From a virus (lineage: Duplodnaviria > Heunggongvirae > Uroviricota > Caudoviricetes), in IMG/VR virus record IMGVR_UViG_2541047119_000012, positions 1 through 11,855 of that record: a DNA stretch of 11,855 bases. One strand, given 5' to 3'. The notes under the pieces were generated by a model, which searched no databases, was not told the origin of the DNA, and saw nothing but the letters and a program-made list of their open reading frames with translations. The stretch's first letter is position 1; every line of letters begins with the position of its first letter. The position numbers and the translations under genes are program-made. This document shows, one piece after another, positions 1 to 11,855 of this stretch.

Positions 1-1
1 C

Positions 2-319
2 CATCACAGTGATAAAGGTTCTCAGTATGTATCACTGGCCTATACGGAGCGACTAAAAGAAGCCGGATTACTGGCATCAACAGGGAGTACAGGCGACTCG
101 TATGACAACGCGATGGCTGAGAGCATCAATGGTCTTTACAAAGCGGAGGTAATACACCGTAAGAGCTGGAAAAACCGTGCAGAAGTGGAACTGGCCACAC
201 TAACGTGGGTGGACTGGTATAACAATCGACGATTGCTGGGAAGGCTGGGCCATACTCCTCCGGCAGAAGCAGAAAAAGCTTATTATGCTTCCATCGGAAA
301 CGATGATCTGGCAGCCTGA
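2..319 (+). mobile_element. IS3-family-like transposase (rve/DDE integrase fold), C-terminal part; 5' end lies outside the window
   Basis: Frame open from position 2 to the stop at 317-319. Translation ...HSDKGSQYVSLAYTERLKEAGLLASTGSTGDSYDNAMAESINGLYKAEVIH...LTWVDWYNNRRLLGRLGHTPPAEAEKAYY shows the DDE-transposase C-terminal signature. The right end of the IS is not resolvable by eye; a GC hairpin at about 349-371 may lie in the terminal region. Confidence 0.75.
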
Positions 320-720
320 GTTCACAGATAAAACACTCTCCAGGAAACCCGGGGCGGTTCAGCCGCCCGGATGGATTGGGTTATGAGCCCGTCGTCCGGT
401 GATGCTCTTCTCTGTTTTGTAAAAAGGACGGTACCAGCCGGAAGCAAGGGTACAAGCTGGTACCGCTAAGACTACACACAGCATAAAGTTGTGGTGCCGG
501 GTGCCTCCCGGTGCCTGGCGAAGGTTGCACACCAGGCGGGTGGGTATCCACAGAAGGTCGACTGTCAGCCTCAACCTTAACCCGCGTGCGCTGAGCCGCA
601 TTCACCACAACGCTAAGGATTCTCTCTGGTTGAAAATACTTAGCTGTTATGTGCCTGTCTTTTCACCACTTCAGGCTCGGTGGTATCCTTTTAAGCCCGT
701 ATACATAAAAGGAAAATCAA

Positions 721-966
721 ATGACTTTTGATGAAAAAGAACTTGATAATGCAATTAATAAAATCATCGTAACGTCGCTCTTTTCCTGTCTCAGCGACAC
801 TCAGCAAAAACAGTTCTACGAATCGGCTTTCAACATGATCGAGCGTTGTTGTTTCTGCGATGCCGACGAGTTACCTGAAAAAATCAGGAAACAGTTGGCT
901 GATGCTCTTCGAGTGCGACTTTCTGACCAATTTTCTGAAATGTACTCTCCGAATTTGGACAAATAG
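721..966 (+). CDS. hypothetical small protein (81 aa)
   Basis: ATG preceded by AAAAGGAAAA Shine-Dalgarno-like sequence at about 8 nt. No recognisable motif. Overlaps the 3' end of the convergent ORF 884..1180. Confidence 0.35.
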   Translation: MTFDEKELDNAINKIIVTSLFSCLSDTQQKQFYESAFNMIERCCFCDADELPEKIRKQLADALRVRLSDQFSEMYSPNLDK

Positions 967-1180
967 AAAAAGGCCATTTCCATTCAGGGTCTGATGGAAA
1001 GACTTCAGCCTGTTCTAAAGCACGGCGTAAAGAGAACACAACTCCAGCCATAATCTGATGTTTCCCATTGGTCCAGCTATCGCCGCTCTGATCTACAGGG
1101 GCGGCTATGTCGTATGACCAAACGACTTCACAGTTATTGTTTAAAATCTGGACTTTCATTTCATACACCTGCTTTAACAT
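884..1180 (-). CDS. hypothetical small protein (98 aa, or 91 aa from the second Met)
   Basis: Leftward ORF downstream of the OL-like operators, the position of the first leftward gene (N) in lambda. An AGGTG sits about 7 nt before the second in-frame ATG. Not arginine-rich and no motif recognised. Confidence 0.3.
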   Translation of the reverse strand: MLKQVYEMKVQILNNNCEVVWSYDIAAPVDQSGDSWTNGKHQIMAGVVFSLRRALEQAEVFPSDPEWKWPFSICPNSESTFQKIGQKVALEEHQPTVS

Positions 1181-1366
1181 GAGTGCCTAGTGGCACAACA
1201 TGACTCAACGAATCATCCTGGACTTCATATGCCCCAGGCGGCTACTTCGTGGGCGTCCTGCCTGTTCGTTTTTGACATTTACTGACTGCTTACGACACAT
1301 GCACCGTGTTGCAACCAGATTTTGTTGTAATCCTGTAGTTGGTCTGGAATAAAAGATAAAATTAAA

Positions 1367-1403
1367 TTGCGAGATATGCAAGTGGTATTTGCGAGATATG
1401 CAA
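1367..1403. promoter_or_regulatory. OL-like operator pair: two identical 15-bp sites TTGCGAGATATGCAA (1367-1381, 1389-1403)
   Basis: Exact direct repeat with TTGC-N7-GCAA symmetry, the same pattern as the site TTGCGTGATAAGCAA in the cI-cro intergenic region. On the minus strand a TTGCAT -35-like hexamer overlaps the sites. Confidence 0.45.
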
Positions 1404-1415
1404 ATTTATAGGTAA

Positions 1416-1437
1416 TAAAAAGCCACCTTTCGGTGGC
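1416..1437 (-). terminator. intrinsic terminator downstream of the repressor gene (minus strand)
   Basis: GCCACC-TTTC-GGTGGC hairpin (1422-1437). On the minus strand it is followed by a T-run (plus-strand AAAAA at 1417-1421), about 20 nt past the cI stop. Confidence 0.6.
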
Positions 1438-1457
1438 CGATGGATGGGATATTGAGG

Positions 1458-2150
1458 TTAATTATGTCTCTTAAGGGTTTGCGACTGACTGATTAAGACC
1501 TTTCCAAAGACCATGAATCGGTGTTCGTTTTCGCTAGTAATTCCCCATTCACGGTAAATCTGGTTATCAGAAATCACCAGCAGTTTGTCAGGAATCATTT
1601 GAAGTCTTTTAACGTATATTTTGTCATCAAAACCAAAGACATATATACCATCACCATCAAACTGATTGATGCTGACATCAACGAAGATGAGATCTCCTGG
1701 CTCAATGGTTGGACACATACTGTCCCCACGAACGTTGATAACTTTGATGTGATTGGCTGGTCGTCCGCCGAACATTGATACAGCATTATCAGTTCTGTAT
1801 TCGATGGCATGAATCACATCAATGACATCACCGCCCTGGATAAGGCCATTTCCCGCACTGGCACTGATATCCAGCATTTCAATACGGAACACATCCTTCA
1901 CCTGCGCAACATCCTCATTATTACTGTTTTTATATACAGTATTACTTTTGTGGGCAGAGGTAAAGAGATCAGCAATATCAACACCTAAGCTCTTGGCAAT
2001 ATTACTCAGTGTTTGTTCGGTAAATTGTTTTTGCTTACCCGTTTCTAAGCGCGAGATGTTCGCCGCATCTACTCCTATCGCTTCAGCGAGATCGGCGATT
2101 TTCATGTTCTTCGCTTGGCGAAGTTGTCTGACTCGGTTTCCTATGTTCAT
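1458..2150 (-). CDS. cI: CI-type prophage repressor: N-terminal XRE-family HTH, C-terminal S24 (LexA-like) self-cleaving peptidase domain
   Basis: N-terminus MNIGNRVRQLRQAKNMKIADLAEAIGVDAANISRLETG is an HTH_XRE. C-terminus has GDSMCPTIEPGDLIFVD (catalytic Ser) and a downstream VKRL Lys, the S24 Ser-Lys dyad; Ala-Gly in ...SASAGNG... is a candidate cleavage site. Divergent from the cro-like gene. No SD before the ATG, so the mRNA is probably leaderless. Confidence 0.9.
   Translation of the reverse strand: MNIGNRVRQLRQAKNMKIADLAEAIGVDAANISRLETGKQKQFTEQTLSNIAKSLGVDIADLFTSAHKSNTVYKNSNNEDVAQVKDVFRIEMLDISASAGNGLIQGGDVIDVIHAIEYRTDNAVSMFGGRPANHIKVINVRGDSMCPTIEPGDLIFVDVSINQFDGDGIYVFGFDDKIYVKRLQMIPDKLLVISDNQIYREWGITSENEHRFMVFGKVLISQSQTLKRHN
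1922..1941. promoter_or_regulatory. LexA (SOS) box-like palindrome TACTGTTTTTATATACAGTA inside the cI coding sequence
   Basis: CTGT-N8-ACAG with an all-A/T spacer and TA flanks, close to the E. coli LexA box consensus TACTGTATATATATACAGTA. My by-eye scan of CTGT occurrences found no other copy in the window. Confidence 0.45.
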
Positions 2151-2247
2151 GCGTTTATTACATTTCTTTATTGCGTGATAAGCAAATCAACTTGCGCAAA
2201 ATAATTGCGTGAAATAACATGCATAACGCGCAATATTTGGAGGGCGT
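2151..2247. promoter_or_regulatory. OR-like divergent promoter/operator region between cI and cro
   Basis: Operator-like sites TTGCGTGATAAGCAA (2171-2185), palindrome TTGCGCAA (2192-2199), TTGCGTGAAATAACA (2206-2220) and inverted ATTGCGCG (2227-2234). Rightward promoter candidate: -35 TTGCGC (2192-2197), 17-bp spacer, -10 TAACAT (2215-2220), then GGAGGG RBS before the cro ATG. Confidence 0.6.
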
Positions 2248-2508
2248 ATGCAATCACCATTACGAAATGTGCGTAAGGCGCATGGTTTCACTTTGCAGCA
2301 TGTTGCTGCGGGTGTTCAAGTCAATCCAGCGACGTTGAGTCGTATTGAGAGGCTGGAGCAGATTCCATCTATCGAGCTTGCAGAACGTTTAGCCAATTTT
2401 TTTAAGGGTGAAGTCAGCGAAATGCAGATTCTTTATCCGGCACGTTTTCAATCTAGCCAAAACCAGAATGGGTTTAAACCACAGGAACAGGAGGTGAACC
2501 GTGGGTAA
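2248..2508 (+). CDS. cro: Cro-like HTH transcriptional regulator (XRE family)
   Basis: Divergent from cI. GFTLQHVAAGVQVNPATLSRIER is an HTH. GGAGGG RBS. Its stop overlaps the GTG start of the next gene. Confidence 0.7.
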   Translation: MQSPLRNVRKAHGFTLQHVAAGVQVNPATLSRIERLEQIPSIELAERLANFFKGEVSEMQILYPARFQSSQNQNGFKPQEQEVNRG

Positions 2509-3052
2509 GCATCACTGGAAAGTAGAAAAACAGCCTGAGTGGTACGTGAAAGCTGTCAGAAAAACTATCGCAGCGTTGCCGGGGGGGTACGCTGAAGCTG
2601 CTGACTGGCTGGATGTAACAGAGAACGCATTATTTAACCGCCTTCGTGCCGATGGCGATCAGATTTTCCCGCTGGGATGGGCAATGATTTTGCAACGTGC
2701 TGGTGGAACTCACTTCATTGCTGACGCTGTGGCGCAGTCTGCAAATGGCGTCTTTGTGTCTCTTCCTGATGTCGAGGATGTGGACAACGCCGATATCAAC
2801 CAACGCCTGCTGGAGGTCATTGAACAGATCGGCAGTTATTCAAAACAGATTCGTTCAGCAATTGAAGACGGTGTAGTGGAACCGCATGAGAAGACAGCAA
2901 TTAACGACGAGCTGTACCTCTCAATTTCGAAGCTGCAGGAGCATGCAGCACTGGTCTACAAAATTTTTTGCATTTCAGAAAGTAATGACGCCCGCGAGTG
3001 TGCAGCTCCGGGCGCCGTGGCGTGTCGTGACTGTGGAGAAACTAACGCATGA
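2501..3052 (+). CDS. YdaT/CII-like prophage regulatory protein (183 aa)
   Basis: GTG start after GGAGG RBS, translationally coupled to cro. Sits in the cII position of the immunity module. Family assignment is from memory of YdaT/CP76-type proteins, not from a search. Confidence 0.5.
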
Positions 3053-3387
3053 ACAGTTTAACAACACACTACCGTCGCTCGCAACTGATTGCACTTCCTG
3101 TACCGGGTGGAAAAGCGAAGGTGGAGTATTGCTATGCAGTGAATGTACCAGGTGACAGGGAAATTGTAACCCACAGCTTTGCAGAGTGGGCTGTGGGTGA
3201 TTTCAACAGGCAAAAGGAGACAGTCCTTTGCGACAAGTTAACCGCTGGTTCAAAGATCACTACGGAGTGCCCGTCAGAGTCATTCGTTGGGAACCGGAAA
3301 CACAACGGGTTATCTACCTCCGCGAAGGCTATGAGCATGAGTGCTTCAGCCCGCTCGAACAGTTTCGTCGTAAATTCAGGGAAATAG
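3049..3387 (+). CDS. hypothetical protein; the ORF as drawn is probably chimeric (5' part plausible, 3' part doubtful)
   Basis: ATG overlaps the upstream stop (ATGA) with GGAG about 7 nt upstream, so the start is credible. The 3' half is Ser-rich and low-complexity with rarer codons, while another frame looks coding (see 3228..3407). Confidence 0.3.
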
Positions 3388-3407
3388 AGGTCGGTCATGA
3401 GCACTAA
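3228..3407 (+). CDS. candidate small protein (59 aa) with TTG start, not in the ORF track
   Basis: AAAGGAGA at 3212-3219, 8 nt before TTG at 3228. Translation [59 protein letters not shown] is protein-like. Stop overlaps the start of the replication gene. May instead be the 3' part of a frameshifted gene begun at 3049. Confidence 0.3.
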
Positions 3408-4338
3408 ATTAACCGGCTATGTATGGGATGGTTGCGCTGCGTCAGGCATGAAGTTATCCAGCGTGGCAATTATGGCCCGCCTGGCTGATTTCAGTAATGA
3501 CGAAGGTGTGTGCTGGCCATCAATTGAAACCATTGCCCGCCAGATTGGCGCGGGGATGAGCACCGTCAGAACGGCTATCGCACGGCTGGAAGCAGAAGGC
3601 TGGTTAACGCGTAAGGCGCGTCGCCAGGGTAACCGCAATGCGTCGAATGTTTATCAGCTTAACGTTGCGAAGCTTCAGGCAGCGGCATTTTCTCAACTGT
3701 CAGATTCTGACCCGTCAAAATCTGACGCATCAAAATCTGACCCGTCAAAATTTGATGCGTCGAAATCTGGCAAAAAAGCGGGTTTTCACCCGTCAGAATC
3801 TGGCGGGGATCCGTCAGTAAAATCAAAACATGATCCGTCAGATAAAAAACCTTCTCGTCCGGACGCTTCGCAACCGGACACGCAGACGGATGAACAGGAT
3901 TTTTTAACTCGCCATCCTGATGCGGTTGTATTCAGCCCTAAAAAGCGCCAGTGGGGGACGCAGGATGATTTGACCTGTGCACAGTGGCTCTGGAAAAAAA
4001 TCATCGCCCTGTACGAGCATGCCGCCGAATGTGACGGCGAGGTGGTTCGTCCCAAAGAACCGAACTGGACAGCCTGGGCAAACGAAATTCGCCTGATGTG
4101 TGTGCAGGATGGTCGTACTCATAAACAAATCTGCGAGATGTACAGCCGCGTCAGTCGCGATCCGTTCTGGTGCCGTAACGTGCTCAGCCCGTCGAAGCTG
4201 CGGGAAAAATGGGATGAGCTTTCCCTGCGCTTATCGCCGTCCGTCAGCACGTACACCGAAAAACGCGAGGACCCGTACTTCAAAGCCAGTTACGACAACG
4301 TGGACTACAGCCAGATCCCGGCAGGATTCAGGGGGTGA
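3397..4338 (+). CDS. lambda O-like replication initiator (N-terminal winged-HTH) with an internal iteron array
   Basis: N-terminus ...VAIMARLADFSNDEGVCWPSIETIARQIGAGMSTVRTAIARLEAEGWL is a wHTH. The repeat region encodes SDPSKSDASKSDPSKFDASKS. Position follows the immunity module as O does in lambda. Confidence 0.55.
   Translation: MSTKLTGYVWDGCAASGMKLSSVAIMARLADFSNDEGVCWPSIETIARQIGAGMSTVRTAIARLEAEGWLTRKARRQGNRNASNVYQLNVAKLQAAAFSQLSDSDPSKSDASKSDPSKFDASKSGKKAGFHPSESGGDPSVKSKHDPSDKKPSRPDASQPDTQTDEQDFLTRHPDAVVFSPKKRQWGTQDDLTCAQWLWKKIIALYEHAAECDGEVVRPKEPNWTAWANEIRLMCVQDGRTHKQICEMYSRVSRDPFWCRNVLSPSKLREKWDELSLRLSPSVSTYTEKREDPYFKASYDNVDYSQIPAGFRG
3706..3845. repeat. iteron array (putative replication origin): four tandem 15-bp units (3706-3765) plus degenerate copies to about 3845, followed by an A-rich stretch
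   Basis: TCTGACCCGTCAAAA / TCTGACGCATCAAAA / TCTGACCCGTCAAAA / TTTGATGCGTCGAAA at exact 15-bp phase; 3724-3734 and 3751-3761 are reverse complements. Further CCGTCAGA-like copies at 3789, 3810, 3834, then AAAATCAAAACA...GATAAAAAACC. Confidence 0.6.
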
Positions 4339-4340
4339 GC

Positions 4341-4829
4341 ATGAGTCTTTTGAATGACGTTCAGAAATTCATTGAAGCCCATCCGGGCTGTACTTCCGGA
4401 GACATTGCGGATGCTTTTGCAGGTTACTCACGGCAGCGCGTTCTGCAGTCTGCAAGCAAGTTACGTCAGAGTGGGCGTGTGGCTCACCGTTGTGAAGGGG
4501 ATACACGCAGACATTTCCCGCGCCTGACTGAGAGAGCGCAGGAGCCGGAACCACAACCAGTTCGTGAAACCAGACCTGTGCGCAATTTCTATGTCGGCAC
4601 TAACGATCCCCGGGTGATTTTGTGCCTGACCCGCCAGGCTGAAGAACTGGAGTCCAGGGGCTTATACCGTCGTGCTGCAACGGTGTGGATGGCGGCATTC
4701 CGTGAAAGCCACTCCCAGCCAGAACGAAACAATTTTCTGGCGCGTCGTGAGCGGTGCTTACGGAAAAGCAGCAAGCGCGCTGTATCGGGTGAAGAGTGGT
4801 ATCTGTCAGGGAATTACGTGGGGGCTTAA
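4341..4829 (+). CDS. PerC-family-like transcriptional regulator (about 162 aa)
   Basis: ATG at 4341 after GGGGG RBS (an in-frame GTG at 4335 is also possible). Motif ...ELESRGLYRRAATVWMAAF... resembles the PerC/Pch signature as I recall it. Stop overlaps the next start (TAATG). Confidence 0.45.
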   Translation: MSLLNDVQKFIEAHPGCTSGDIADAFAGYSRQRVLQSASKLRQSGRVAHRCEGDTRRHFPRLTERAQEPEPQPVRETRPVRNFYVGTNDPRVILCLTRQAEELESRGLYRRAATVWMAAFRESHSQPERNNFLARRERCLRKSSKRAVSGEEWYLSGNYVGA

Positions 4830-5482
4830 TGAGTAATAAATATTGCCAGGCGCTGGTGGAGCTGCGGAACAAACCAGCCCATGAACTGAAGGAAGTGGGC
4901 GATCAGTGGCGCACGCCGGACAACATTTTCTGGGGAATTAACACCCTGTTTGGCCCGTTTGTTCTGGATCTGTTCACTGACGGTGATAACGCCAAATGTG
5001 CCGCTTATTACACTGCGGAAGACAACGCGCTGGCGCATGACTGGTCAGAACGTCTTGCGGAGCTTAAAGGTGCTGCCTTTGGTAATCCCCCATACAGCCG
5101 CGCCAGTCAGCATGAGGGGCAATACATCACCGGCATGCGTTACATCATGAAGCATGCCAGTGCCATGCGTGATAAAGGCGGGCGCTATGTTTTCCTGATC
5201 AAAGCTGCCACCAGCGAAGTGTGGTGGCCGGAAGATGCAGATCATATTGCTTTTATTCGCGGGCGTATTGGTTTTGAACTGCCTGCCTGGTTTATCCCGA
5301 AGGATGAGAAGCAGGTGCCGACAGGCGCTTTCTTCGCTGGTGCTATTGCTGTTTTCGACAAGACCTGGAAGGGACCGGCAATCAGCTACATCGGGCGCTA
5401 TGAACTTGAGGCATGTGGTGAGGCCTTTCTGGCGCAGGTTCGCCAGCAGGCAGAAAAACTGGTCAGGGAGATGGCGGCATGA
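4829..5482 (+). CDS. phage Dam-type DNA N6-adenine methyltransferase
   Basis: N-terminal WRTPDNIF motif and catalytic NPPY (...AAFGNPPYSRA...). ATG overlaps the upstream stop; the GTG at 4796 in the ORF track is less likely. Confidence 0.85.
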   Translation: MSNKYCQALVELRNKPAHELKEVGDQWRTPDNIFWGINTLFGPFVLDLFTDGDNAKCAAYYTAEDNALAHDWSERLAELKGAAFGNPPYSRASQHEGQYITGMRYIMKHASAMRDKGGRYVFLIKAATSEVWWPEDADHIAFIRGRIGFELPAWFIPKDEKQVPTGAFFAGAIAVFDKTWKGPAISYIGRYELEACGEAFLAQVRQQAEKLVREMAA

Positions 5483-5805
5483 CGACGTTAACTCAATGCC
5501 AGCAGCAGGTGCTGGATATGCTGATTTCTTATCAGAAAGAACGTGGCTTCCCGCCAACCAATCAGGAGGTGGCAACCATGCTGGGATACCGTTCAGTGAA
5601 TGCAGCGGTGGAGCATCTTCGCGCACTGGAGAAAAAAGGCGTCATCACGATAAAGCGTGGCGTGGCCCGGGGGATAACGCTTCATATCGCGGTGAAGGAC
5701 GACGACAGCGAGGCGGTCGGGATTATCCGCGCACTGCTTGCCGGTGAGGAAAACGCAAGGCTGCGTGCAACCCACTGGTTACATGAGAGGGACCTGAAAG
5801 TATGA
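5479..5805 (+). CDS. LexA N-terminal DNA-binding-domain protein with no S24 peptidase domain (108 aa)
   Basis: LTQCQQQVLDMLISYQKERGFPPTNQEVATMLGYRSVNAAVEHLRALEKKGVITIKRGVARGITL aligns by eye along its length with the E. coli LexA N-terminus (…LTARQQEVFDLI…[44 protein letters not shown]…). No Ala-Gly cleavage or Ser-Lys peptidase region follows. GGGAG RBS; ATGA overlap with the methyltransferase stop. Confidence 0.8.
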   Translation: MTTLTQCQQQVLDMLISYQKERGFPPTNQEVATMLGYRSVNAAVEHLRALEKKGVITIKRGVARGITLHIAVKDDDSEAVGIIRALLAGEENARLRATHWLHERDLKV

Positions 5806-6191
5806 AGCTGATCCTGCCTTTTCCGCCCAGCGTGAACACGTACTGGCGACACCCCAACAAAGGGGCGTTTGCTGGTAAGAGCCTGATAAGCGCGGCGGGG
5901 CGAAAATTCCAGAGCGCGGCGTGCGCAGCAATAGTTGAGCAGTTACGTCGTCTGCCGAAACCAACGTCGGCACCTGCTTCAGTGGAGATCGTGTTGTTTC
6001 CTCCGGATAACCGGATCCGCGATCTGGACAACTATAACAAGGCGCTGTTTGACGCCCTGACCCACGCGGGTGTGTGGGAAGACGACAGTCAGGTGAAAAG
6101 AATGCTGGTGGAGTGGGGACCGGTTATCCCGGAAGGGAAGGTCGAGATCACTATCAGTAAGTACGAGAAAACGGCGGGTGCAGCCGCCTGA
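5802..6191 (+). CDS. rusA: RusA Holliday-junction resolvase
   Basis: PFPPSVNTYWRH...DLDNYNKALFDALTHAGVWEDDSQV matches the RusA family conserved blocks. Start overlaps the upstream stop. Confidence 0.9.
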   Translation: MKLILPFPPSVNTYWRHPNKGAFAGKSLISAAGRKFQSAACAAIVEQLRRLPKPTSAPASVEIVLFPPDNRIRDLDNYNKALFDALTHAGVWEDDSQVKRMLVEWGPVIPEGKVEITISKYEKTAGAAA

Positions 6192-6210
6192 TTAAGAGGA
6201 GAAACGAAGT

Positions 6211-7020
6211 ATGAATAATCTGATGGTCATTGATGGTATTGAAGTTCGTCGTGATGCTTATGGGCGTTACAGCCTGAACGATCTGCATCGCGCAGCAGTA
6301 GCATCTGGTGCAAATGCCAGAACCAAGGAGCCGGGAAAGTTTCTTTCCAGCCAACAAACTGTTGAGCTTGTTCATGAATTGACCAACACCCAGAATTTGG
6401 GTGTTGACCCGGTGAGTGTGATTCATGGGGGAAATGAACGGGGAACGTATGTCTGCAAGGAACTGGTGTATGCCTATGCAATGTGGATCAGCCCGTCATT
6501 CCATCTGAAGGTGATCCGTACTTTCGATATGGTAACCAGCGCACCGGAAAAATTATCCGGACAGGCTGCTGACAAGATGCAGGCTGGCGTGATCCTGCTG
6601 GACTTTATGCGCCGGGAGTTAAACCTGTCTAACTCTTCAGTGCTTGGTGCCTGTCAGAAACTCCAGGAGGCTGTTGGCTTACCGAATCTGGCACCGCGCT
6701 ATGCCATTGATGCTCCTGCTGACGCGCCTGATGGCTCAAGCCGCCCCACGCTATCATTGAGTGCACTGCTGAAGCAGTATGGTATCCGCCTGACAGCTAA
6801 TCAGGCATATCACCAGATGGCGAAGCTGGGGATCGTTGAACAACGTGAACGATACAGCCGCACTGCGATTAACAACATCAAAAAATTCTGGTCGCTGACA
6901 GCGAAAGGCTGCATGTTCGGCAAGAACATCACCAGTCCCGCAAATCCGCGCGAGACGCAGCCGCATTTCTTCGAATCCCGATTCCCTGAGCTGTTAAAGC
7001 TGCTCGATACCGTTCATTGA
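6211..7020 (+). CDS. KilA-N domain protein with a C-terminal antirepressor-like region
   Basis: N-terminus ...DGIEVRRDAYGRYSLNDLHRAAVASG...GTYVCKELVYAYAMWISPSFHLKVI is a KilA-N domain. Strong RBS AAGAGGAGAAA. Confidence 0.75.
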   Translation: MNNLMVIDGIEVRRDAYGRYSLNDLHRAAVASGANARTKEPGKFLSSQQTVELVHELTNTQNLGVDPVSVIHGGNERGTYVCKELVYAYAMWISPSFHLKVIRTFDMVTSAPEKLSGQAADKMQAGVILLDFMRRELNLSNSSVLGACQKLQEAVGLPNLAPRYAIDAPADAPDGSSRPTLSLSALLKQYGIRLTANQAYHQMAKLGIVEQRERYSRTAINNIKKFWSLTAKGCMFGKNITSPANPRETQPHFFESRFPELLKLLDTVH

Positions 7021-7021
7021 G

Positions 7022-8017
7022 GTGACCGTGAGAGCACTACTGACTCCTGAAATTGCCCCGCGTATGGGGATCGTATTGTTCAGGCCAGGTTCAGAGCTGA
7101 TGCCCCTGTTTATGCAGGGGCGTGTCCTGCTGGAGCCTGAGCCGGAACGTTATTCATCTTTCGCCAGTGGTGCCGTTCCGGCGGCATCACAACCGCTGGC
7201 GGATGATCCTGCCGTTCGGGCCGTGTTCCGCAATGAGGCAGTGATCCGTCGTGCTGGTGGCGTGGAATGTCTTGAAAGCTGGTTACTTCGTGAAAAAGGC
7301 TGCCAGTGGCCTCATTCCGACTGGCACAGCGAGAACATGACCACAATGCGACACGCTCCGGGCGCAATCCGTCTGTGCTGGCACTGCGATAACCAGCTGC
7401 GCGATCAGTTCACGGAACGGCTGGAATCAATGGCAACGGATAACTGTGCCCGCTGGGTGTTGTCTGTTGTGCGTCGGGATCTCGGTTTTGATGACAGTCA
7501 CGTTGTGACAATGCCGGAACTGTGCTGGTGGCTGATTCGTAATGACCTGGCGGATGCCTTACCGGAAAGTGCAGCCCGTAAGGCACTTAGATTACCGAAG
7601 CCTGTTGTGCCGTCTGTTACCCGGGAAAGTGACCTTGTGCCTTCGGTTCCTGCCACCAGCATCATCCAGGATAAAGCGAAAAAGGTGCTGGCGCTGAAAG
7701 TGGATCCTGAGTCGCCGGAGTCTTTTATGTTACGCCCAAAACGTCGCCGCTGGGTTAATGAAAAGTACACGCGCTGGGTTAAGACACAGCCGTGTGCATG
7801 TTGTGGAAAGCCTGCTGATGATCCCCACCACCTGATAGGTCACGGTCAGGGAGGAATGGGTACAAAAGCGCATGACCTCTTTGTGTTGCCTTTGTGCAGA
7901 AAGCATCACGACGAGCTGCATGCGGATACCGTGGCATTTGAAGAGAAGTATGGCTCCCAGCTGGAGCTGATATTTCGTTTTATCGATCGTGCGCTGGCAA
8001 TAGGCGTACTGGCGTAA
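7022..8017 (+). CDS. DUF968-like prophage protein with a C-terminal Cys/His zinc-binding (HNH-like) motif
   Basis: C-terminus ...PCACCGKPADDPHHLIGHGQGGMGTKAHDLFVLPLCRKHHDELH. Nin-region position between rusA and Q. Start is uncertain (GTG 7022 or a downstream start). Confidence 0.5.
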   Translation: MTVRALLTPEIAPRMGIVLFRPGSELMPLFMQGRVLLEPEPERYSSFASGAVPAASQPLADDPAVRAVFRNEAVIRRAGGVECLESWLLREKGCQWPHSDWHSENMTTMRHAPGAIRLCWHCDNQLRDQFTERLESMATDNCARWVLSVVRRDLGFDDSHVVTMPELCWWLIRNDLADALPESAARKALRLPKPVVPSVTRESDLVPSVPATSIIQDKAKKVLALKVDPESPESFMLRPKRRRWVNEKYTRWVKTQPCACCGKPADDPHHLIGHGQGGMGTKAHDLFVLPLCRKHHDELHADTVAFEEKYGSQLELIFRFIDRALAIGVLA

Positions 8018-8030
8018 GTGGAGAACGAGC

Positions 8031-8783
8031 ATGAACTTTGAAGCCTTACCGAAATATTACTCCCCAAAATCTCCAAAATTGAGCGATGACGCACCGGCGA
8101 CAGGCTCTGGTGGTTTAACAATTACGGATGTAATGGCTGCGCAGGGGATGGTGCAGTCGAAAGCACCGCTTGGGTTTGCCTTATTCCTGGCAAAAGTTGG
8201 TGTTCAGGATCCTCAGTTTGCGATTGAAGGTCTGCTCAATTACGCGATGGCACTGGATAACCCGACATTGAACAAATTGAGTGAAGAAACCCGGCTACAG
8301 ATCATTCCTTACCTTGTGAATTTTGCCTTTGCTGATTATTCCAGGTCTGCGGCAAGTAAGGCTCGCTGTGAGCATTGTGCTGGTACTGGATTTCATGATG
8401 TATTGCGCGAGGTGGTGAAACACTCCAGAAGCGGGGAATCTGTTATCAAGGAAGAGTGGGTGAAGGAACTGTGTCAGCATTGTCATGGTAAGGGAGAAGT
8501 CAGCACAGCGTGCAGAGGGTGTAAGGGTAAAGGTATTGTCCTGGATGAAAAAAGAACCAGGCTTCATGGCACGCCTGTTTATAAGGTTTGTGGGCGTTGC
8601 AATGGAAACCGGTTTAGCCGTTTACCAACCACACTGGCGCGGCTTCATGTCCAGAAGCTGGTACCAGACCTGACGGATTATCAGTGGTACAAAGGATATG
8701 CAGATGTCATTGATAAACTGGTTACAAAGTGCTGGCAGGAAGAAGCGTATGCTGAGACACAATTGAGGAAAGTGACGAGATGA
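8031..8783 (+). CDS. Q: late-gene antitermination protein Q (phage 82 / QuuQ type, 250 aa)
   Basis: Four CxxCxGxG-type zinc-finger repeats (CEHCAGTG, CQHCHGKG, CRGCKGKG, CGRCNGN). Sits immediately upstream of a promoter plus short-transcript terminator. GGAG RBS. Confidence 0.8.
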   Translation: MNFEALPKYYSPKSPKLSDDAPATGSGGLTITDVMAAQGMVQSKAPLGFALFLAKVGVQDPQFAIEGLLNYAMALDNPTLNKLSEETRLQIIPYLVNFAFADYSRSAASKARCEHCAGTGFHDVLREVVKHSRSGESVIKEEWVKELCQHCHGKGEVSTACRGCKGKGIVLDEKRTRLHGTPVYKVCGRCNGNRFSRLPTTLARLHVQKLVPDLTDYQWYKGYADVIDKLVTKCWQEEAYAETQLRKVTR

Positions 8784-8814
8784 ATGATTTTCGACGAAAA
8801 TGGCGACATGATGC

Positions 8815-8843
8815 TTGCATTTTTCAAAAAAAATGGATAATAT
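8815..8843 (+). promoter_or_regulatory. PR'-like late promoter (-35 TTGCAT, 17-bp spacer, -10 TAATAT); a qut site is expected to overlap
   Basis: Hexamers at 8815-8820 and 8838-8843, directly downstream of Q and about 50 nt upstream of an intrinsic terminator. Confidence 0.5.
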
Positions 8844-8890
8844 TTTCTCAATGATAGGCATTGTGTGTCCGGCTTTAATAAAAAGTAGAA

Positions 8891-8917
8891 AACCCGCTGA
8901 TGTGCGGGTTTTTTTTC
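8891..8917 (+). terminator. tR'-like intrinsic terminator
   Basis: AACCCGC-TGATGT-GCGGGTT hairpin followed by TTTTTTTT. Confidence 0.7.
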
Positions 8918-8937
8918 GGAATTTTAGATGTGTGGCA

Positions 8938-8967
8938 TTGAAATGGTATTCGGCGAGTAGGTAGAAT
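8938..8967 (+). promoter_or_regulatory. sigma70-like promoter upstream of the cargo genes (-35 TTGAAA, 18-bp spacer, -10 TAGAAT)
   Basis: Hexamers at 8938-8943 and 8962-8967, about 27 nt upstream of the 8995 ATG. Confidence 0.4.
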
Positions 8968-8994
8968 TTAAACTTTCGTCTCGTCTGGATCGAC

Positions 8995-9537
8995 ATGATG
9001 TTTCAAGCCTTCCAAACAGCAGTATTTAAAAATGTTGCAGAGTATTTAAAAGGGCGCTTCCCTCATAAGTCGTTAGGGCTCGTATATGCCGACGAGCTGG
9101 TACTAAAAGATATGGAGTTCCTCAAGGCTAACAATAAACTGCGGTGGGATCCCGGACTAAAGTCGCGAGTGTTTATGGATATGATGGAAGAACACCCGAT
9201 AAAACTAGTTGTTTATTATCGTGGGGAGCCTATTGGATTTGCATTTGGGTGTTACTGTAAGCCGAAAAATGCGGTGCATATTTGCTGGATGGAAAAACGT
9301 AATGATGCACATGAAGACCTAGACCATCAGATGCTTGGTATCGTTTTGGATTGCTTCTCTGCATATGCACGATTTCTGAACCTTCAGGGTGAATCTATTG
9401 ATTCGATAGCTTTAGTTAGTCCAGTTGATGGGGCAATAAGATACTATACTGAAAGTGGTTTTGAGTACATTGCTGATTACGAACGAGGTGGTTGCGCAAT
9501 GGTGCTTAGGAGCGTTTTACCTAACCAATCAGTGTGA
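8995..9537 (+). CDS. uncharacterised cargo protein (180 aa), possibly GNAT-fold acyltransferase-like
   Basis: Lies in the AT-rich segment. C-terminal ...SIALVSPVDGAIRYYTESGFEYIADYERGGCAMVL resembles the GNAT beta5-alpha4-beta6 region, but the canonical Q/RxxGxG/A acetyl-CoA motif is not evident. Weak SD. Confidence 0.55.
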   Translation: MMFQAFQTAVFKNVAEYLKGRFPHKSLGLVYADELVLKDMEFLKANNKLRWDPGLKSRVFMDMMEEHPIKLVVYYRGEPIGFAFGCYCKPKNAVHICWMEKRNDAHEDLDHQMLGIVLDCFSAYARFLNLQGESIDSIALVSPVDGAIRYYTESGFEYIADYERGGCAMVLRSVLPNQSV

Positions 9538-9728
9538 GTTAGATTCTTAATTTCTCCAGAATCATTACAAAAGTATTGAAAACCTCTTTTAGTTGATGCA
9601 ATCTGGATCCACACAAAGCACACACAAAATGTACTACGCTTTACTTTATACATCTTCAGGTAACAAACTTTGTTGCCTTTATGCTTCAAAGAAGCAACTA
9701 CAGCTTAGTGCTGAACAAGGGGATTTTT

Positions 9729-9914
9729 ATGAAACATCATGAGCAGATAGAGATTGAGGCAGCTAAAGTCGTCGCCGAACTCTTTGCTGGCAATGCATCT
9801 CCAATGGAAACCTTTGGTATTACATGGAGTCAAACTCAGATGTTAGAGCGTAAGAATCCTGGTGTAGTGATCAAACTAGTACCGGATGACGGTAAAAAAC
9901 TTGCGTATTGCTGA
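9729..9914 (+). CDS. uncharacterised small cargo protein (61 aa)
   Basis: ATG at 9729 with AAGGGG 6 nt upstream (the track's upstream ATG at 9681 lacks an RBS). Followed by an intrinsic terminator. No motif recognised. Confidence 0.5.
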   Translation: MKHHEQIEIEAAKVVAELFAGNASPMETFGITWSQTQMLERKNPGVVIKLVPDDGKKLAYC

Positions 9915-9973
9915 TAATTTTTAAAGATTTTTTCAGCTAGAGAATCGATTATTTTACTATAAATCGCGAAGGA

Positions 9974-9998
9974 GCCCCACATATTGTGGGGCTTTTTG
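9974..9998 (+). terminator. intrinsic terminator closing the cargo unit
   Basis: GCCCCACA-TAT-TGTGGGGC hairpin (8-bp stem) followed by TTTTTG. Confidence 0.7.
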
Positions 9999-10171
9999 TT
10001 TCATCTTAGTTAGCCGTTATTCACATTCACTACTTTGCTACTTATCCACTGTAAAAATAAATTGTGAATTATTTTGTGGCTTATTGTTAGTGTTCTATCA
10101 ATTTTGTGTGTGATATTCCATTGGCGTGGTTATTATCTGTGCATCGCACTTAAATGTATAAAGCTCACTAG

Positions 10172-10486
10172 TTGAGACAATCCTACCACCAGTTGGTGGT
10201 ATCTCATGATTCACTGAATTGCAAATCTTCTGAATTGCTGGATGAGTTTAAATCTCACCGGCGCTATTTCTCCGTATCAGTCTCCGTGCCTTATACCGAT
10301 GTCAGGACGCATAAGCCCGTTCAGTTCTACCCGGGTAAACATCCGTGCGAGAAACCGGCGGATATGCTCAGGCAAATAATCAATGCCAGTAGTCGACCTG
10401 GTGATCTGGTTGCTGATTTCTTTATGGGATTCGGTTCCACAATAAAAGCAGCAATGGCGCTGGGGCGTCGGGCGTTAGGTGTTTAA
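10172..10486 (+). pseudogene. remnant of a beta-class N6/N4 DNA methyltransferase (C-terminal motif region only)
   Basis: ...HPCEKPADMLRQIINASSRPGDLVADFFMGFGSTIKAAMALGRRALGV corresponds to the conserved ...HPTQKP...GD.VLDPF.GSGTT..AA..LGR..IGIE block with degenerate residues. No DPPY-encoding N-terminal part upstream, which is AT-rich non-coding. TTG start only. Confidence 0.55.
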
Positions 10487-10553
10487 CTTGAGTCAGAGCG
10501 GTTTAATCAGACGGTGAAAGAGGTAAGTGAACTGGTGGGGAAATAATTCTGGT

Positions 10554-10579
10554 GGCCACGTTGCGTGGCCTTTTTATTT
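10554..10579 (+). terminator. intrinsic terminator immediately upstream of the holin gene
   Basis: GGCCACG-TTG-CGTGGCC hairpin (10554-10570) followed by TTTTTATTT. Confidence 0.6.
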
Positions 10580-10622
10580 CCAACACAGCACCCGCAAATA
10601 TCGCGAGGTGAGAGATGACGAA

Positions 10623-10958
10623 ATGCCTCATAACCCAAATACCTGGCCGGACTGGCTGGAGTTGTTTCAGAGCTGGTGGCGTGGAGACACACCGCTGGGT
10701 GCAGTGATTATGTCGATCGTTATGGCTGGTTTGCGCATCGCCTATTTTGGCGGTGGTGGTGGCTGGAAGCGAAAAACGCTCGAGATTTTGCTATGTGGCG
10801 CTCTGACGCTGACCTTTGCATCCGCTCTTGAGTATGTCGGATGGCCTAAATCACTTTCTGTTGCCATTGGTGGTGGGGTGGGGCTGATCGGTGTCGATGC
10901 TATTCGTGGGGCTGCAATGCGAGTAATCGGTAACAAATTTGGTGGCTCTAAGGAGTAA
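10623..10958 (+). CDS. holin (lambda-S-like architecture, about 111 aa)
   Basis: Three hydrophobic segments (AVIMSIVMAGLRIAYFGG; TLEILLCGALTLTFASALEYV; LSVAIGGGVGLIGVDAIRGAAM) and a charged C-terminus, directly upstream of the endolysin. GAGGTGA about 11 nt before ATG 10623. The track's 10527 GTG start would place a terminator hairpin inside the coding sequence. Confidence 0.7.
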   Translation: MPHNPNTWPDWLELFQSWWRGDTPLGAVIMSIVMAGLRIAYFGGGGGWKRKTLEILLCGALTLTFASALEYVGWPKSLSVAIGGGVGLIGVDAIRGAAMRVIGNKFGGSKE

Positions 10959-10961
10959 TTT

Positions 10962-11438
10962 ATGCAGGTACTAAATTCCCAGCGTAAAGCTTTCCTTGAT
11001 ATGGTGGCTTGGTCAGAAGGAACGGATAACGGACGACAACCGACACGTAACCACGGTTATGACGTTATTGTCGGTGGTGAACTCTTCACTGATTACTCCG
11101 ATCACCCTCGCAAACTTGTCACGCTAAACCCCAAACTCAAATCAACAGCCGCCGGACGTTACCAGCTTCTTTCACGTTGGTGGGATGCTTACCGTAAACA
11201 GCTTGGTTTGAAAGACTTCTCCCCCAAAAGCCAGGACGCTGTGGCATTGCAGCAGATTAAAGAACGTGGCGCTTTACCGATGATTGATCGTGGTGATATT
11301 CGTCAGGCTATCGACCGTTGCAGCAATATCTGGGCTTCGTTGCCGGGCGCTGGTTACGGTCAGTTCGAGCATAAGGCTGACAGCCTGATTGCAAAATTCA
11401 AAGAAGCAGGCGGAACGGTCAGAGAGATTGAGGTATGA
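10962..11438 (+). CDS. R: endolysin, lambda R-type lytic transglycosylase
   Basis: ...[57 protein letters not shown]...[91 protein letters not shown]... is almost identical to phage lambda R as I recall it. AAGGAG RBS. Confidence 0.95.
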
Positions 11439-11855
11439 GCAGAGTAACCGCGATTATTTCCGCTCTGGTTATCTGCATCATCGTCTGCCTGTCATGGGCT
11501 GTTAATCATTACCGTGATAACGCCATTACCTACAAAGCCCAGCGCGACAAAAATGCCAGAGAACTGAAGCTGGCGAACTCGACAATTACTGACATGCAGA
11601 TGCGTCAGCGTGATGTTGCTGCGCTCGATGCAAAATACACGAAGGAGTTAGCTGATGCGAAAGCTGAAAATGATGCTCTGCGTGATGATGTTGCCGCTGG
11701 TCGTCGTCGGTTGCACATCAAAGCAGTCTGTCAGTCAGTGCGTGAAGCCACCACCGCCTCCGGCGTGGATAATGCAGCCTCCCCCCGACTGGCAGACACC
11801 GCTGAACGGGATTATTTCACCCTCAGAGAGAGGCTGATCACTATGCAAAAACAAC
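11435..11855 (+). CDS. Rz: Rz i-spanin (inner-membrane spanin); 3' end beyond the window
   Basis: [48 protein letters not shown]... matches lambda Rz. ATG overlaps the R stop. Confidence 0.9.
11655..11837 (+). CDS. Rz1: Rz1 o-spanin lipoprotein, embedded in the +1 frame of Rz
   Basis: [24 protein letters not shown]... has a lipobox (VVGC) and the proline-rich [17 protein letters not shown], lying wholly inside Rz in another frame as in lambda. Confidence 0.9.

Follow-up and report, generated by a model that had tools for sequence, protein, structure and literature searches.

What does an operator of the host SOS response do inside the coding sequence of a phage repressor? The question is raised by a stretch of 11,855 nucleotides (positions 1 to 11,855 of the IMG/VR virus record IMGVR_UViG_2541047119_000012, Caudoviricetes; hereafter the window), which is a lambdoid prophage with an immunity region of the Shigella phage SfII type. 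Its repressor gene, cI, contains a 20-bp LexA box in the codons that link the two domains of the protein. In the reading that we regard as the best one, with moderate confidence, the box is a LexA operator repressing a promoter nested in cI (P_int), from which an isoform of the repressor devoid of the helix-turn-helix (HTH) domain would be produced in SOS.

The LexA box in the linker of CI

The cI protein of the window is 100% identical to SfII cI, and the cI-cro-cII DNA is 99.5% identical to that of SfII. Pfam recognizes HTH_3 at residues 7–62 (E 1e-11) and Peptidase_S24 at residues 104–218 (E 6e-19), and the cleavage site A99-G100 (SASAG), S144 (GDSM), and K181 (VKRL) are invariant in the alignment of orthologues. 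With its HTH and S24 domains, Ala-Gly site, and Ser/Lys dyad, cI fits, judging by its sequence, the CI/LexA type of autocleaving repressor. The box corresponds to codons 70–76 (N-T-V-Y-K-N-S), between HTH_3 and Peptidase_S24, in agreement with the preliminary description of this DNA, which had located it in the linker-coding part of the gene. The operators of the CI/Cro switch lie in the intergenic region; they are TTGCG-type repeats unrelated to the box.

The same description had reported, from a scan by eye, that this near-consensus LexA box is the only CTGT-N8-ACAG of the window and that about 0.2 such motifs are expected by chance. The computed scan returns the same single occurrence and an expectation of 0.17. 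The bare motif is weak alone, with at least one match in 32 of 200 shuffles. The full 20-mer, TACTGTTTTTATATACAGTA (TACTGTATATAAAAACAGTA on the coding strand of cI, its reverse complement), differs from the LexA consensus TACTGTATATATATACAGTA at two positions, and a match with three or fewer mismatches was found in 0 of 200 shuffles. The box has the CTGT-N8-ACAG palindrome, the A/T-rich spacer, and the TA..TA flanks of an SOS box. Moreover, TACTGTATATAAAAACAGTA is letter for letter the SOS box of E. coli umuD and sbmC (PMC3009722, Table 4). A LexA position weight matrix (PWM) trained on the 14 boxes of that table, an analysis that the preliminary description had proposed, gives the box 28.7 bits, as compared to 20.1–28.7 bits for true sites and 9.2 bits for the second-best position in the window. 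As the training set contains this very sequence twice, the score is circular for TACTGTATATAAAAACAGTA, but it is non-circular for the variants of the box in orthologues. In the whole genome of SfII (41.5 kb) the box is the sole LexA-like site, the next best reaching 11.8 bits.

Orthologues were collected by tblastn against phage records, a one-genome-per-species scan, and two IMG/VR scans. Their protein identity ranges from 54 to 100%, and they come from about 13 enterobacterial genera: Shigella/Escherichia, Salmonella (ST64B/Adana), Citrobacter, Klebsiella, Kluyvera, Pseudescherichia, Trabulsiella, Buttiauxella, Pantoea, Mixta, Rosenbergiella, Proteus, and Serratia. The preliminary description had made its proposal depend on conservation of the site, and a LexA box of 16–30 bits turned out to be present at nucleotide 210 of the coding sequence in 80 of the 82 distinct orthologous repressors (at nucleotide 207 in those of Proteus). 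The second IMG/VR scan, which sought more losses of the box, yielded 57 distinct proteins, all 57 still boxed. Among the boxes there are 34 different 20-mers, in which CTG (positions 3–5) and CAG (positions 16–18) are invariant and the spacer varies, a pattern that mirrors the information in the LexA half-sites. The linker residues on either side are unalignable and contain indels. No box was found in the next repressor family (about 40% identity; Turner, ST104-type, 3W, Fraca), in Phaseolibacter, or in Dryocola KV18.

The only orthologues without a good box are those of Dryocola H11 (L032) and KV18 (L031), in which the in-frame start at codon 87, discussed below, is also gone (G). In Dryocola H11 the CTGT-N8-ACAG is kept with a G+C-rich spacer and other codons, scoring 6.1 bits. 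It includes a perfect 8-bp palindrome, CGCTGTGC-AAAA-GCACAGCG, which suggests a decaying or re-purposed site.

Selection on the DNA was distinguished from selection on the protein by means of synonymous positions, which the preliminary description had also recommended for a check. The test used 27 sequences, with 57 conserved codons of at least 4-fold degeneracy as control; the typical entropy of the latter is about 1.7 bits. At synonymous positions the box codons are the most constrained in cI. The codon of T71 has an entropy of 0.00 bits (ACT in 25/25), the lowest of all, followed in rank 2 by S76 with 0.24 bits (AGT in 25/26), and V72 takes rank 4 with 0.75 bits (GTA in 23/27). The codon preceding S76 keeps a third-position C in 26/27 while encoding N, H, S, T, P, or D. 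Third positions of codons 70–76 are identical in 23–26 of the 27 sequences, save the central codon 74, as compared to 10–18 of 27 in the flanks. The arm codons are fixed, whereas elsewhere in these sequences conserved Thr, Ser, and Val residues use their codons without such restriction. We conclude from these alignments that the box DNA itself is under purifying selection, probably as a LexA site. A separate observation is that codon G4 of cI is also unusually constrained, being GGA in 25/27.

Instead of a DNA signal, one could see in the box a side effect of a conserved peptide (TVYxNS) or an mRNA hairpin, or a product of chance. T71, V72, and S76 are conserved as amino acids too, and a 6-bp stem, taken alone, has a folding energy of −5.2 kcal/mol. 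However, it is the codons that are fixed (ACT, AGT), and the third-position C survives amino-acid change. No compensatory changes in the stem were seen across the box variants; the one-sided changes are of the CCAG type, which is tolerated in real LexA boxes. Chance, for its part, is opposed by the shuffles mentioned above. This explanation appears to be hardly credible.

The preliminary description had tied the box to a protein encoded in the same prophage that consists of a LexA DNA-binding domain (DBD). Pfam does find such a protein in the window (Table 1), with the counterpart SfII_44 in SfII. It is 43% identical to the N-terminal domain of E. coli LexA and keeps most recognition-helix residues. 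If the box were primarily the target of this uncleavable protein, the two would be expected together. Klebsiella phage ST147-VIM1phi7.2 and E. coli phage Eeyore, however, are both boxed and contain no homologue, so the box is not tied to the LexA-DBD gene, and it is conserved over many genera in which host LexA is the common factor. Such a primary role is thus very improbable. In SfII-type phages the protein could nevertheless mimic LexA at the box, being itself uncleavable, and it might re-repress SOS genes or the cI box in lytic growth. Identity with a proven operator, together with conservation, leads us to read the 20-mer as a genuine operator for host LexA, a view held with the same moderate confidence as the promoter and isoform model of which it is a part.

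Transcription initiation inside cI

The prophage ST64B carries an 83% orthologue of the repressor, Sb38 (SL1344_1967 = SL1967 = STMMW_20241), with the box TACTGTATGTAAACACAGTG, which is weaker (22.6 bits). Three transcription start sites (TSSs) are listed for ST64B cI in the differential RNA sequencing (dRNA-seq) catalogue of S. Typhimurium 4/74 (Srikumar et al. 2015, S1 Table, Dataset 3). One of them, 2072465 (+), is classified as Internal. It is nucleotide 222 of the coding sequence, an A, in such a register that TACTGT takes −12 to −7, TTTACC −35 to −30, and the box −12 to +8; its usage is 237, 213, and 173 under the conditions ESP, macrophage, and InSPI2, respectively. The Primary TSS, 2072244 (+), is the A of the ATG and has a usage of 640, 280, and 467. 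The Secondary TSS, 2071952 (+), is flagged as antisense (the cro-like SL1966 is opposite), and its usage is 14.8, 10, and 12.4. The coordinates were checked against the promoter strings of Ramachandran et al., and these agree letter for letter with the ST64B sequence. The preliminary description had treated the lack of a nearby transcript start as an argument against the site; in the ST64B orthologue a sense TSS was found inside the box.

Since the hexamers of the window are the same as in ST64B and in the same register, the +1 of P_int is predicted at the corresponding A (Table 1), and the window would thus possess the promoter too. In the window the −10 hexamer is the left arm of the box. 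With the operator at −12 to +8, which is a classical position, LexA would repress P_int by occlusion. The umuDC operator-promoter is alike: its 20-bp operator is identical, and the TACTGT left arm serves as −10, 17 bp from the −35. A 47-bp synthetic promoter derived from umuDC, TTGACA-17-TACTGTATATAAAAACAGTA, was reported to be working, tight, and SOS-inducible (PMC9074414).

A strict consensus promoter scan of 1300–2600 gave no matches. The same scan also missed pR and pRM, and it was therefore replaced by a hexamer PWM with generic promoter frequencies. As a reference, lambda pRM scores 10.4 and the umuDC-derived promoter 12.5. The sense match TTTACx-17-TACTGT is conserved in position among the orthologues with scores of 7.8 to 9.1, the 99.9th percentile of the background being 6.6. 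The −35 is TTTAC(C/A/T) at the same position in most orthologues, and F63 is TTT in 26/27. In Pantoea allii and Rosenbergiella, where this hexamer has decayed, a TATAAT within the spacer of the box gives a score of about 11 instead.

The preliminary description had left the strand open, proposing an internal or an antisense promoter. The internal sense promoter is favored by the ST64B TSS in the box and by conservation; the antisense one fared poorly. In the latter case the box would drive a + strand promoter whose RNA pairs with the 5′ half of the cI mRNA and/or enters cro. The palindromic box could serve either strand, antisense promoter-like matches of 9–10.7 do occur in some orthologues, and the LexA-repressed lambda pO promoter of oop, a short RNA antisense to cII that has a terminator of its own, is a precedent from the immunity region of a lambdoid phage, where SOS transcription likewise modulates a regulator of lysogeny. 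However, the best antisense match in the window scores 4.9 and the positions in orthologues are not conserved. No + strand terminator was found between 1941 and 2247. Among the TSS rows listed for the ST64B cI region none is opposite cI, the sole antisense-flagged one (2071952) opposing cro. Unlike oop, the mapped internal start of ST64B is on the sense strand. An antisense role for the box is accordingly a very remote prospect.

Another mode of action would be a roadblock, in which LexA bound within cI stops transcription from pRM (and from a pRE-type promoter), so that SOS raises full-length cI and the induction threshold. Every cI transcript has to pass the operator, which is located some 220 nt past the leaderless start of cI. 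Sense cI RNA of ST64B amounts to 251 transcripts per million in InSPI2, 394 in peroxide shock, and 278 in NO shock; the rise on peroxide shock, a treatment that induces this prophage, is 1.6-fold, a weak signal taken at gene level that also agrees with the P_int model without being specific to it. The roadblock is compatible with P_int, and both could coexist. Alone, it leaves unexplained the TSS at +7 from TACTGT, the fixed 17 bp to TTTACC, and the coupled ribosome-binding motif and start codon described below. We know of no case of LexA acting as an efficient block to elongation, and the roadblock seems improbable as the main function.

Two further observations concern the ST64B starts. The Primary TSS implies a leaderless cI mRNA, as for lambda pRM, and the sequence upstream of the ATG is nearly the same in the window (AATGTAATAAACGC, then ATG) and in ST64B (AATGTAATGAACGC, then ATG). 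The Secondary TSS is 292 nt upstream of the cI start, appears in three dRNA-seq tables, and looks like a pRE-type establishment promoter; its equivalent in the window would lie inside cro/cII, about 290 nt to the right of the cI start.

The small RNA gene STnc1310 of ST64B was considered as a transcript starting at the box and ruled out, as it sits 326 bp past the cI stop, in the early-left leader. It corresponds to D23580 2099207–2099280 and, with the two following genes, is strongly induced by peroxide and NO alongside the ST64B lytic genes. About 100 bp upstream of it there is a weak LexA-like match of 10.7 bits. STnc1310 looks like the leader of the early-left operon. The e14 element of E. 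coli K-12, where the PGAP name ymfL of a neighboring gene led to a possible source of data, was also discarded: its YmfK is non-orthologous and has no comparable box, the similarity to cI being local only (15/39 residues around the S24 GDSM motif).

A candidate nested start and a candidate isoform lacking the HTH domain

Downstream of the box, 23 of 25 boxed orthologues possess, within codons 84–91, an in-frame GTG or ATG with a Shine–Dalgarno (SD)-like motif 4–10 nt upstream. The pair is found 6–12 codons past the box, on the N-terminal border of the S24 domain. This peak is the highest in the gene; the second-highest, 15, coincides with the invariant GDSM motif, against a median of 0. All 57 of the further IMG/VR orthologues carry an in-frame SD and start. 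None of seven box-less relatives does so within codons 70–110, and the out-of-frame controls gave 12/25 and 1/25. Position 87, the commonest start position in orthologues, is GTG, ATG, or TTG in 19 of the 25 boxed orthologues. The motif and start are built from different codons in different lineages, e.g., AGGAGG-9-ATG in Pantoea gossypiicola. In the window there are two candidates, GTG84 and GTG87 (Table 1). M92 was rejected as an internal start; the residue is not conserved, being I, V, or L in other orthologues. The predicted product of 144–147 aa would comprise the whole S24 domain and the cleavage site without HTH, a layout resembling that of UmuD.

Table 1. Coordinates of the features discussed, counted from the first letter of the window
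Feature	Position	Strand	Remarks
LexA (SOS) box	1922..1941	.	TACTGTTTTTATATACAGTA; would cover −12 to +8 of P_int
P_int −10 hexamer TACTGT	1936..1941	-	left arm of the box; PWM 7.8; register of the ST64B TSS
P_int −35-like hexamer TTTACC	1959..1964	-	17 bp upstream of the −10; codons F63-T64
P_int predicted +1 (A)	1929	-	register transferred from ST64B TSS 2072465
SD-like motif GAGGA	1912..1916	-	10 nt upstream of GTG84
Second SD-like motif AGGTGA	1898..1903	-	5 nt upstream of GTG87; read from the sequence and covered by the SD/start scan
In-frame GTG (V84)	1899..1901	-	candidate isoform start, 147 aa
In-frame GTG (V87)	1890..1892	-	alternative start, 144 aa
Predicted nested open reading frame (ORF)	1458..1901	-	S24-only cI isoform with A99-G100, Ser144, Lys181; from P_int and SD/start
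cI repressor gene, SfII type	1458..2150	-	230 aa; HTH_3 + Peptidase_S24; Pfam, SfII match
Terminator-like hairpin just past the cI stop	1421..1438	-	rho-independent terminator in the SfII annotation
LexA-DBD-only protein	5479-5805	+	108 aa; PF01726, E 3e-19; no S24/cleavage domain

Gene callers respond to the same site. Where contigs are cut upstream, the NCBI gene caller picks GTG84 and thus a 147-aa product. In a metagenome contig (L204, 2244–2935) the equivalent of GTG87 was picked (144 aa) despite an intact full-length ORF. Public 144- and 147-aa "S24-only" calls (L204, P0104, P0001) are a recurrent mis-annotation, which arises because the internal ribosome-binding site is strong and the true start lacks an SD; the full-length ATG (2148–2150, minus strand) has none. 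The preference of the caller means that the site looks like a good ribosome-binding site and is no evidence of expression. As free-standing isoforms these database proteins were rejected, being artefacts of contig truncation or start choice.

P_int could also be real and LexA-controlled while its RNA gives no functional isoform, acting as an RNA or keeping the 3′ half of cI transcribed. This alternative starts from the fact that the TSS has been mapped in ST64B, whereas translation would follow from motifs; the SD and start motifs are short, the linker codons in which they occur are rich in purines, and in alleles of the Klebsiella type the motifs coincide with codons of a conserved peptide. 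However, an untranslated RNA does not account for a motif peak that tops the gene, is assembled from lineage-specific codons, is missing from all seven box-less relatives, and exceeds both out-of-frame controls. It seems unlikely, if the least so among the alternatives considered here.

We therefore return to the LexA-repressed nested promoter with its HTH-less isoform. In an undamaged lysogen, LexA would sit on P_int, and most of the cI product would be the full-length protein, initiated at the leaderless start of pRM type. On DNA damage, RecA-stimulated cleavage of LexA would free P_int. Its transcript would start inside the box, carry the SD and the in-frame GTG84 or GTG87, and end, likely together with that of pRM, at the hairpin past the cI stop. 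Translation would give the 144–147-aa isoform, with the cleavage site and the oligomerization/peptidase domain and with no HTH. The isoform may be expected to mix with full-length subunits or to compete for activated RecA (RecA*), thereby tuning lysis–lysogeny under SOS; the effect on the switch via mixed CI oligomers or RecA* competition could be pro- or anti-induction.

Several points weigh against this proposal. The internal TSS is known from one TSS catalogue and from the ST64B orthologue only; the rows covered of the SL1344 tables of Ramachandran (2012 and 2014) give only 5′ TSSs for this gene, although these tables may not catalogue internal ones. P_int is active even where the DNA was not damaged on purpose; in ESP its usage is about a third of that of pRM, and LexA repression in ST64B would accordingly be leaky or absent, at best partial. 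The −35 element is weak, and its conservation may be driven by the protein because it is inside conserved Phe-Thr codons. On the side of the product, a free-standing isoform was not found among database proteins. Klebsiella-type alleles have SD and start only at V96, in the conserved VEVLDVS peptide, and this start could be a by-product of coding. The association between box and start involves few independent events, because joint loss is seen only in the Dryocola lineage. A literature search gave no paper on a C-terminal CI fragment interfering with full-length CI, a notion that belongs to the background of work on P22 c2 and lambda cI.

A stronger version of the proposal is that this repressor family (SfII, ST64B, mEp460, some Stx2a phages) carries a nested SOS-inducible antirepressor, with mixed oligomers collapsing cooperative binding to the operators and with LexA and CI autocleavage gating induction jointly. 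The umuDC operator is among the tightest and latest-derepressed of SOS operators. If the LexA gate were as tight as that of umuDC, the antirepressor would come late in SOS, and a single ORF would hold a feed-forward loop. We regard this version as tentative, and its truth as rather doubtful.

Relation to known systems and significance

The proposed arrangement shares features with several described ones. The predicted cI isoform is UmuD-like in its S24 domain, short arm, cleavage site, and lack of a DNA-binding domain. Unlike that of umuDC, the operator-promoter of cI is embedded in coding DNA, where it is in frame with codons of the linker, and its product would be an isoform of the repressor instead of a subunit of a polymerase; we imply no functional connection to translesion synthesis. 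LexA-controlled antirepressors (186 Tum, Gifsy GfoA/GftA, Fels-2, N15 AntC) are LexA-repressed, SOS-only products acting on the immunity repressor (PMC7380047; Owen 2020). Host LexA directly represses a prophage promoter there and the product hits the repressor, as proposed for the cI box. In contrast to Tum/Ant modules, there is no separate antirepressor gene here and no second LexA box in the window or SfII, and what LexA controls would be the C-terminal domain of the repressor itself. Furthermore, the Ala-Gly/Ser/Lys machinery for autocleavage is retained in cI, whereas that literature describes the Gifsy repressors as lacking it. Host LexA operators also take part in the lysogeny circuits of CTXphi (RstR/LexA at PrstA) and GIL01 (LexA/gp7) (PMC4551915). 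Those boxes are intergenic and belong to lytic or replication promoters with LexA as main repressor or co-repressor, whereas here the switch is a classical CI/Cro one and the box is inside the CI coding sequence.

Nested in-frame isoforms are likewise familiar from Tn5 Inh, made from the transposase gene, and from Meydan-type internal initiation sites. In these cases, as proposed here, an internal promoter or start gives an N-truncated protein without the DNA-binding part that can poison or modulate the full-length form. To our knowledge, no SOS operator serving as internal promoter of a phage CI repressor has been described. The literature search gave no SOS box inside a cI coding sequence and no LexA-controlled nested or truncated repressor. 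As far as we have seen, the internal TSS of ST64B sits in a published table and is apparently uninterpreted there. LexA operators in prophages are well known; the location of one inside the cI coding sequence appears to be the new aspect.

Some features of the window and its relatives stand apart from the box. A hairpin with a weak T-run, found by the terminator scan, is inside the first cro codons (2267–2284, plus strand). About 1.1 kb to the left of cI there is a C-terminal fragment of an IS3-family transposase (rve_3/rve_2; 113–319, plus strand), and the early-left arm, the int/xis side in SfII, appears to be broken or replaced by insertion sequence DNA. The antiterminator gene Q (8031–8783, plus strand) encodes 250 aa with an N-terminal extension, and the protein has a DnaJ-type CXXCXGXG zinc-finger match just under the Pfam threshold (31.1 bits, cutoff 32.7). 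The annotated Q in the SfII record has only about 103 aa; therefore, the late-regulation module is unlike that of SfII despite the near-identical immunity region. No LexA box was found upstream of the gene for a KilA-N protein (6211–7020). Phage Eeyore (L121) has three more strong LexA-like boxes (16–24 bits) at 3131, 3939, and 20325; they are close to its dinI-like and umuD-like genes and at the beginning of a gene for a DNA methyltransferase. A larger phage-borne LexA regulon is thus carried by some relatives.

The cI-cro-cII region was found in 1046 of 5426 complete E. coli genomes, about one in five, and alleles about 91–92% identical to it occur in mEp460, Stx2a_1447/WGPS2, 1720a-02, and others. 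The immunity type is common as well as medically relevant: it includes the Shigella serotype-converting SfII and some Stx2a-converting phages, and also ST64B of Salmonella, the lysis genes of which bring about the release of colicin Ib. In practical terms, PSOSP, the classifier of prophage SOS dependence based on LexA boxes, would miss such boxes because only promoter regions are scanned, and gene callers at times mistake the internal start for that of cI. In the textbook CI switch, RecA-stimulated self-cleavage of the repressor is taken as the entire SOS input. Here a second, LexA-dependent input is apparently encoded in the repressor gene itself and kept by selection over many genera. If the isoform does modulate induction, the release of Shiga toxin and of phage under DNA-damaging antibiotics would be affected.

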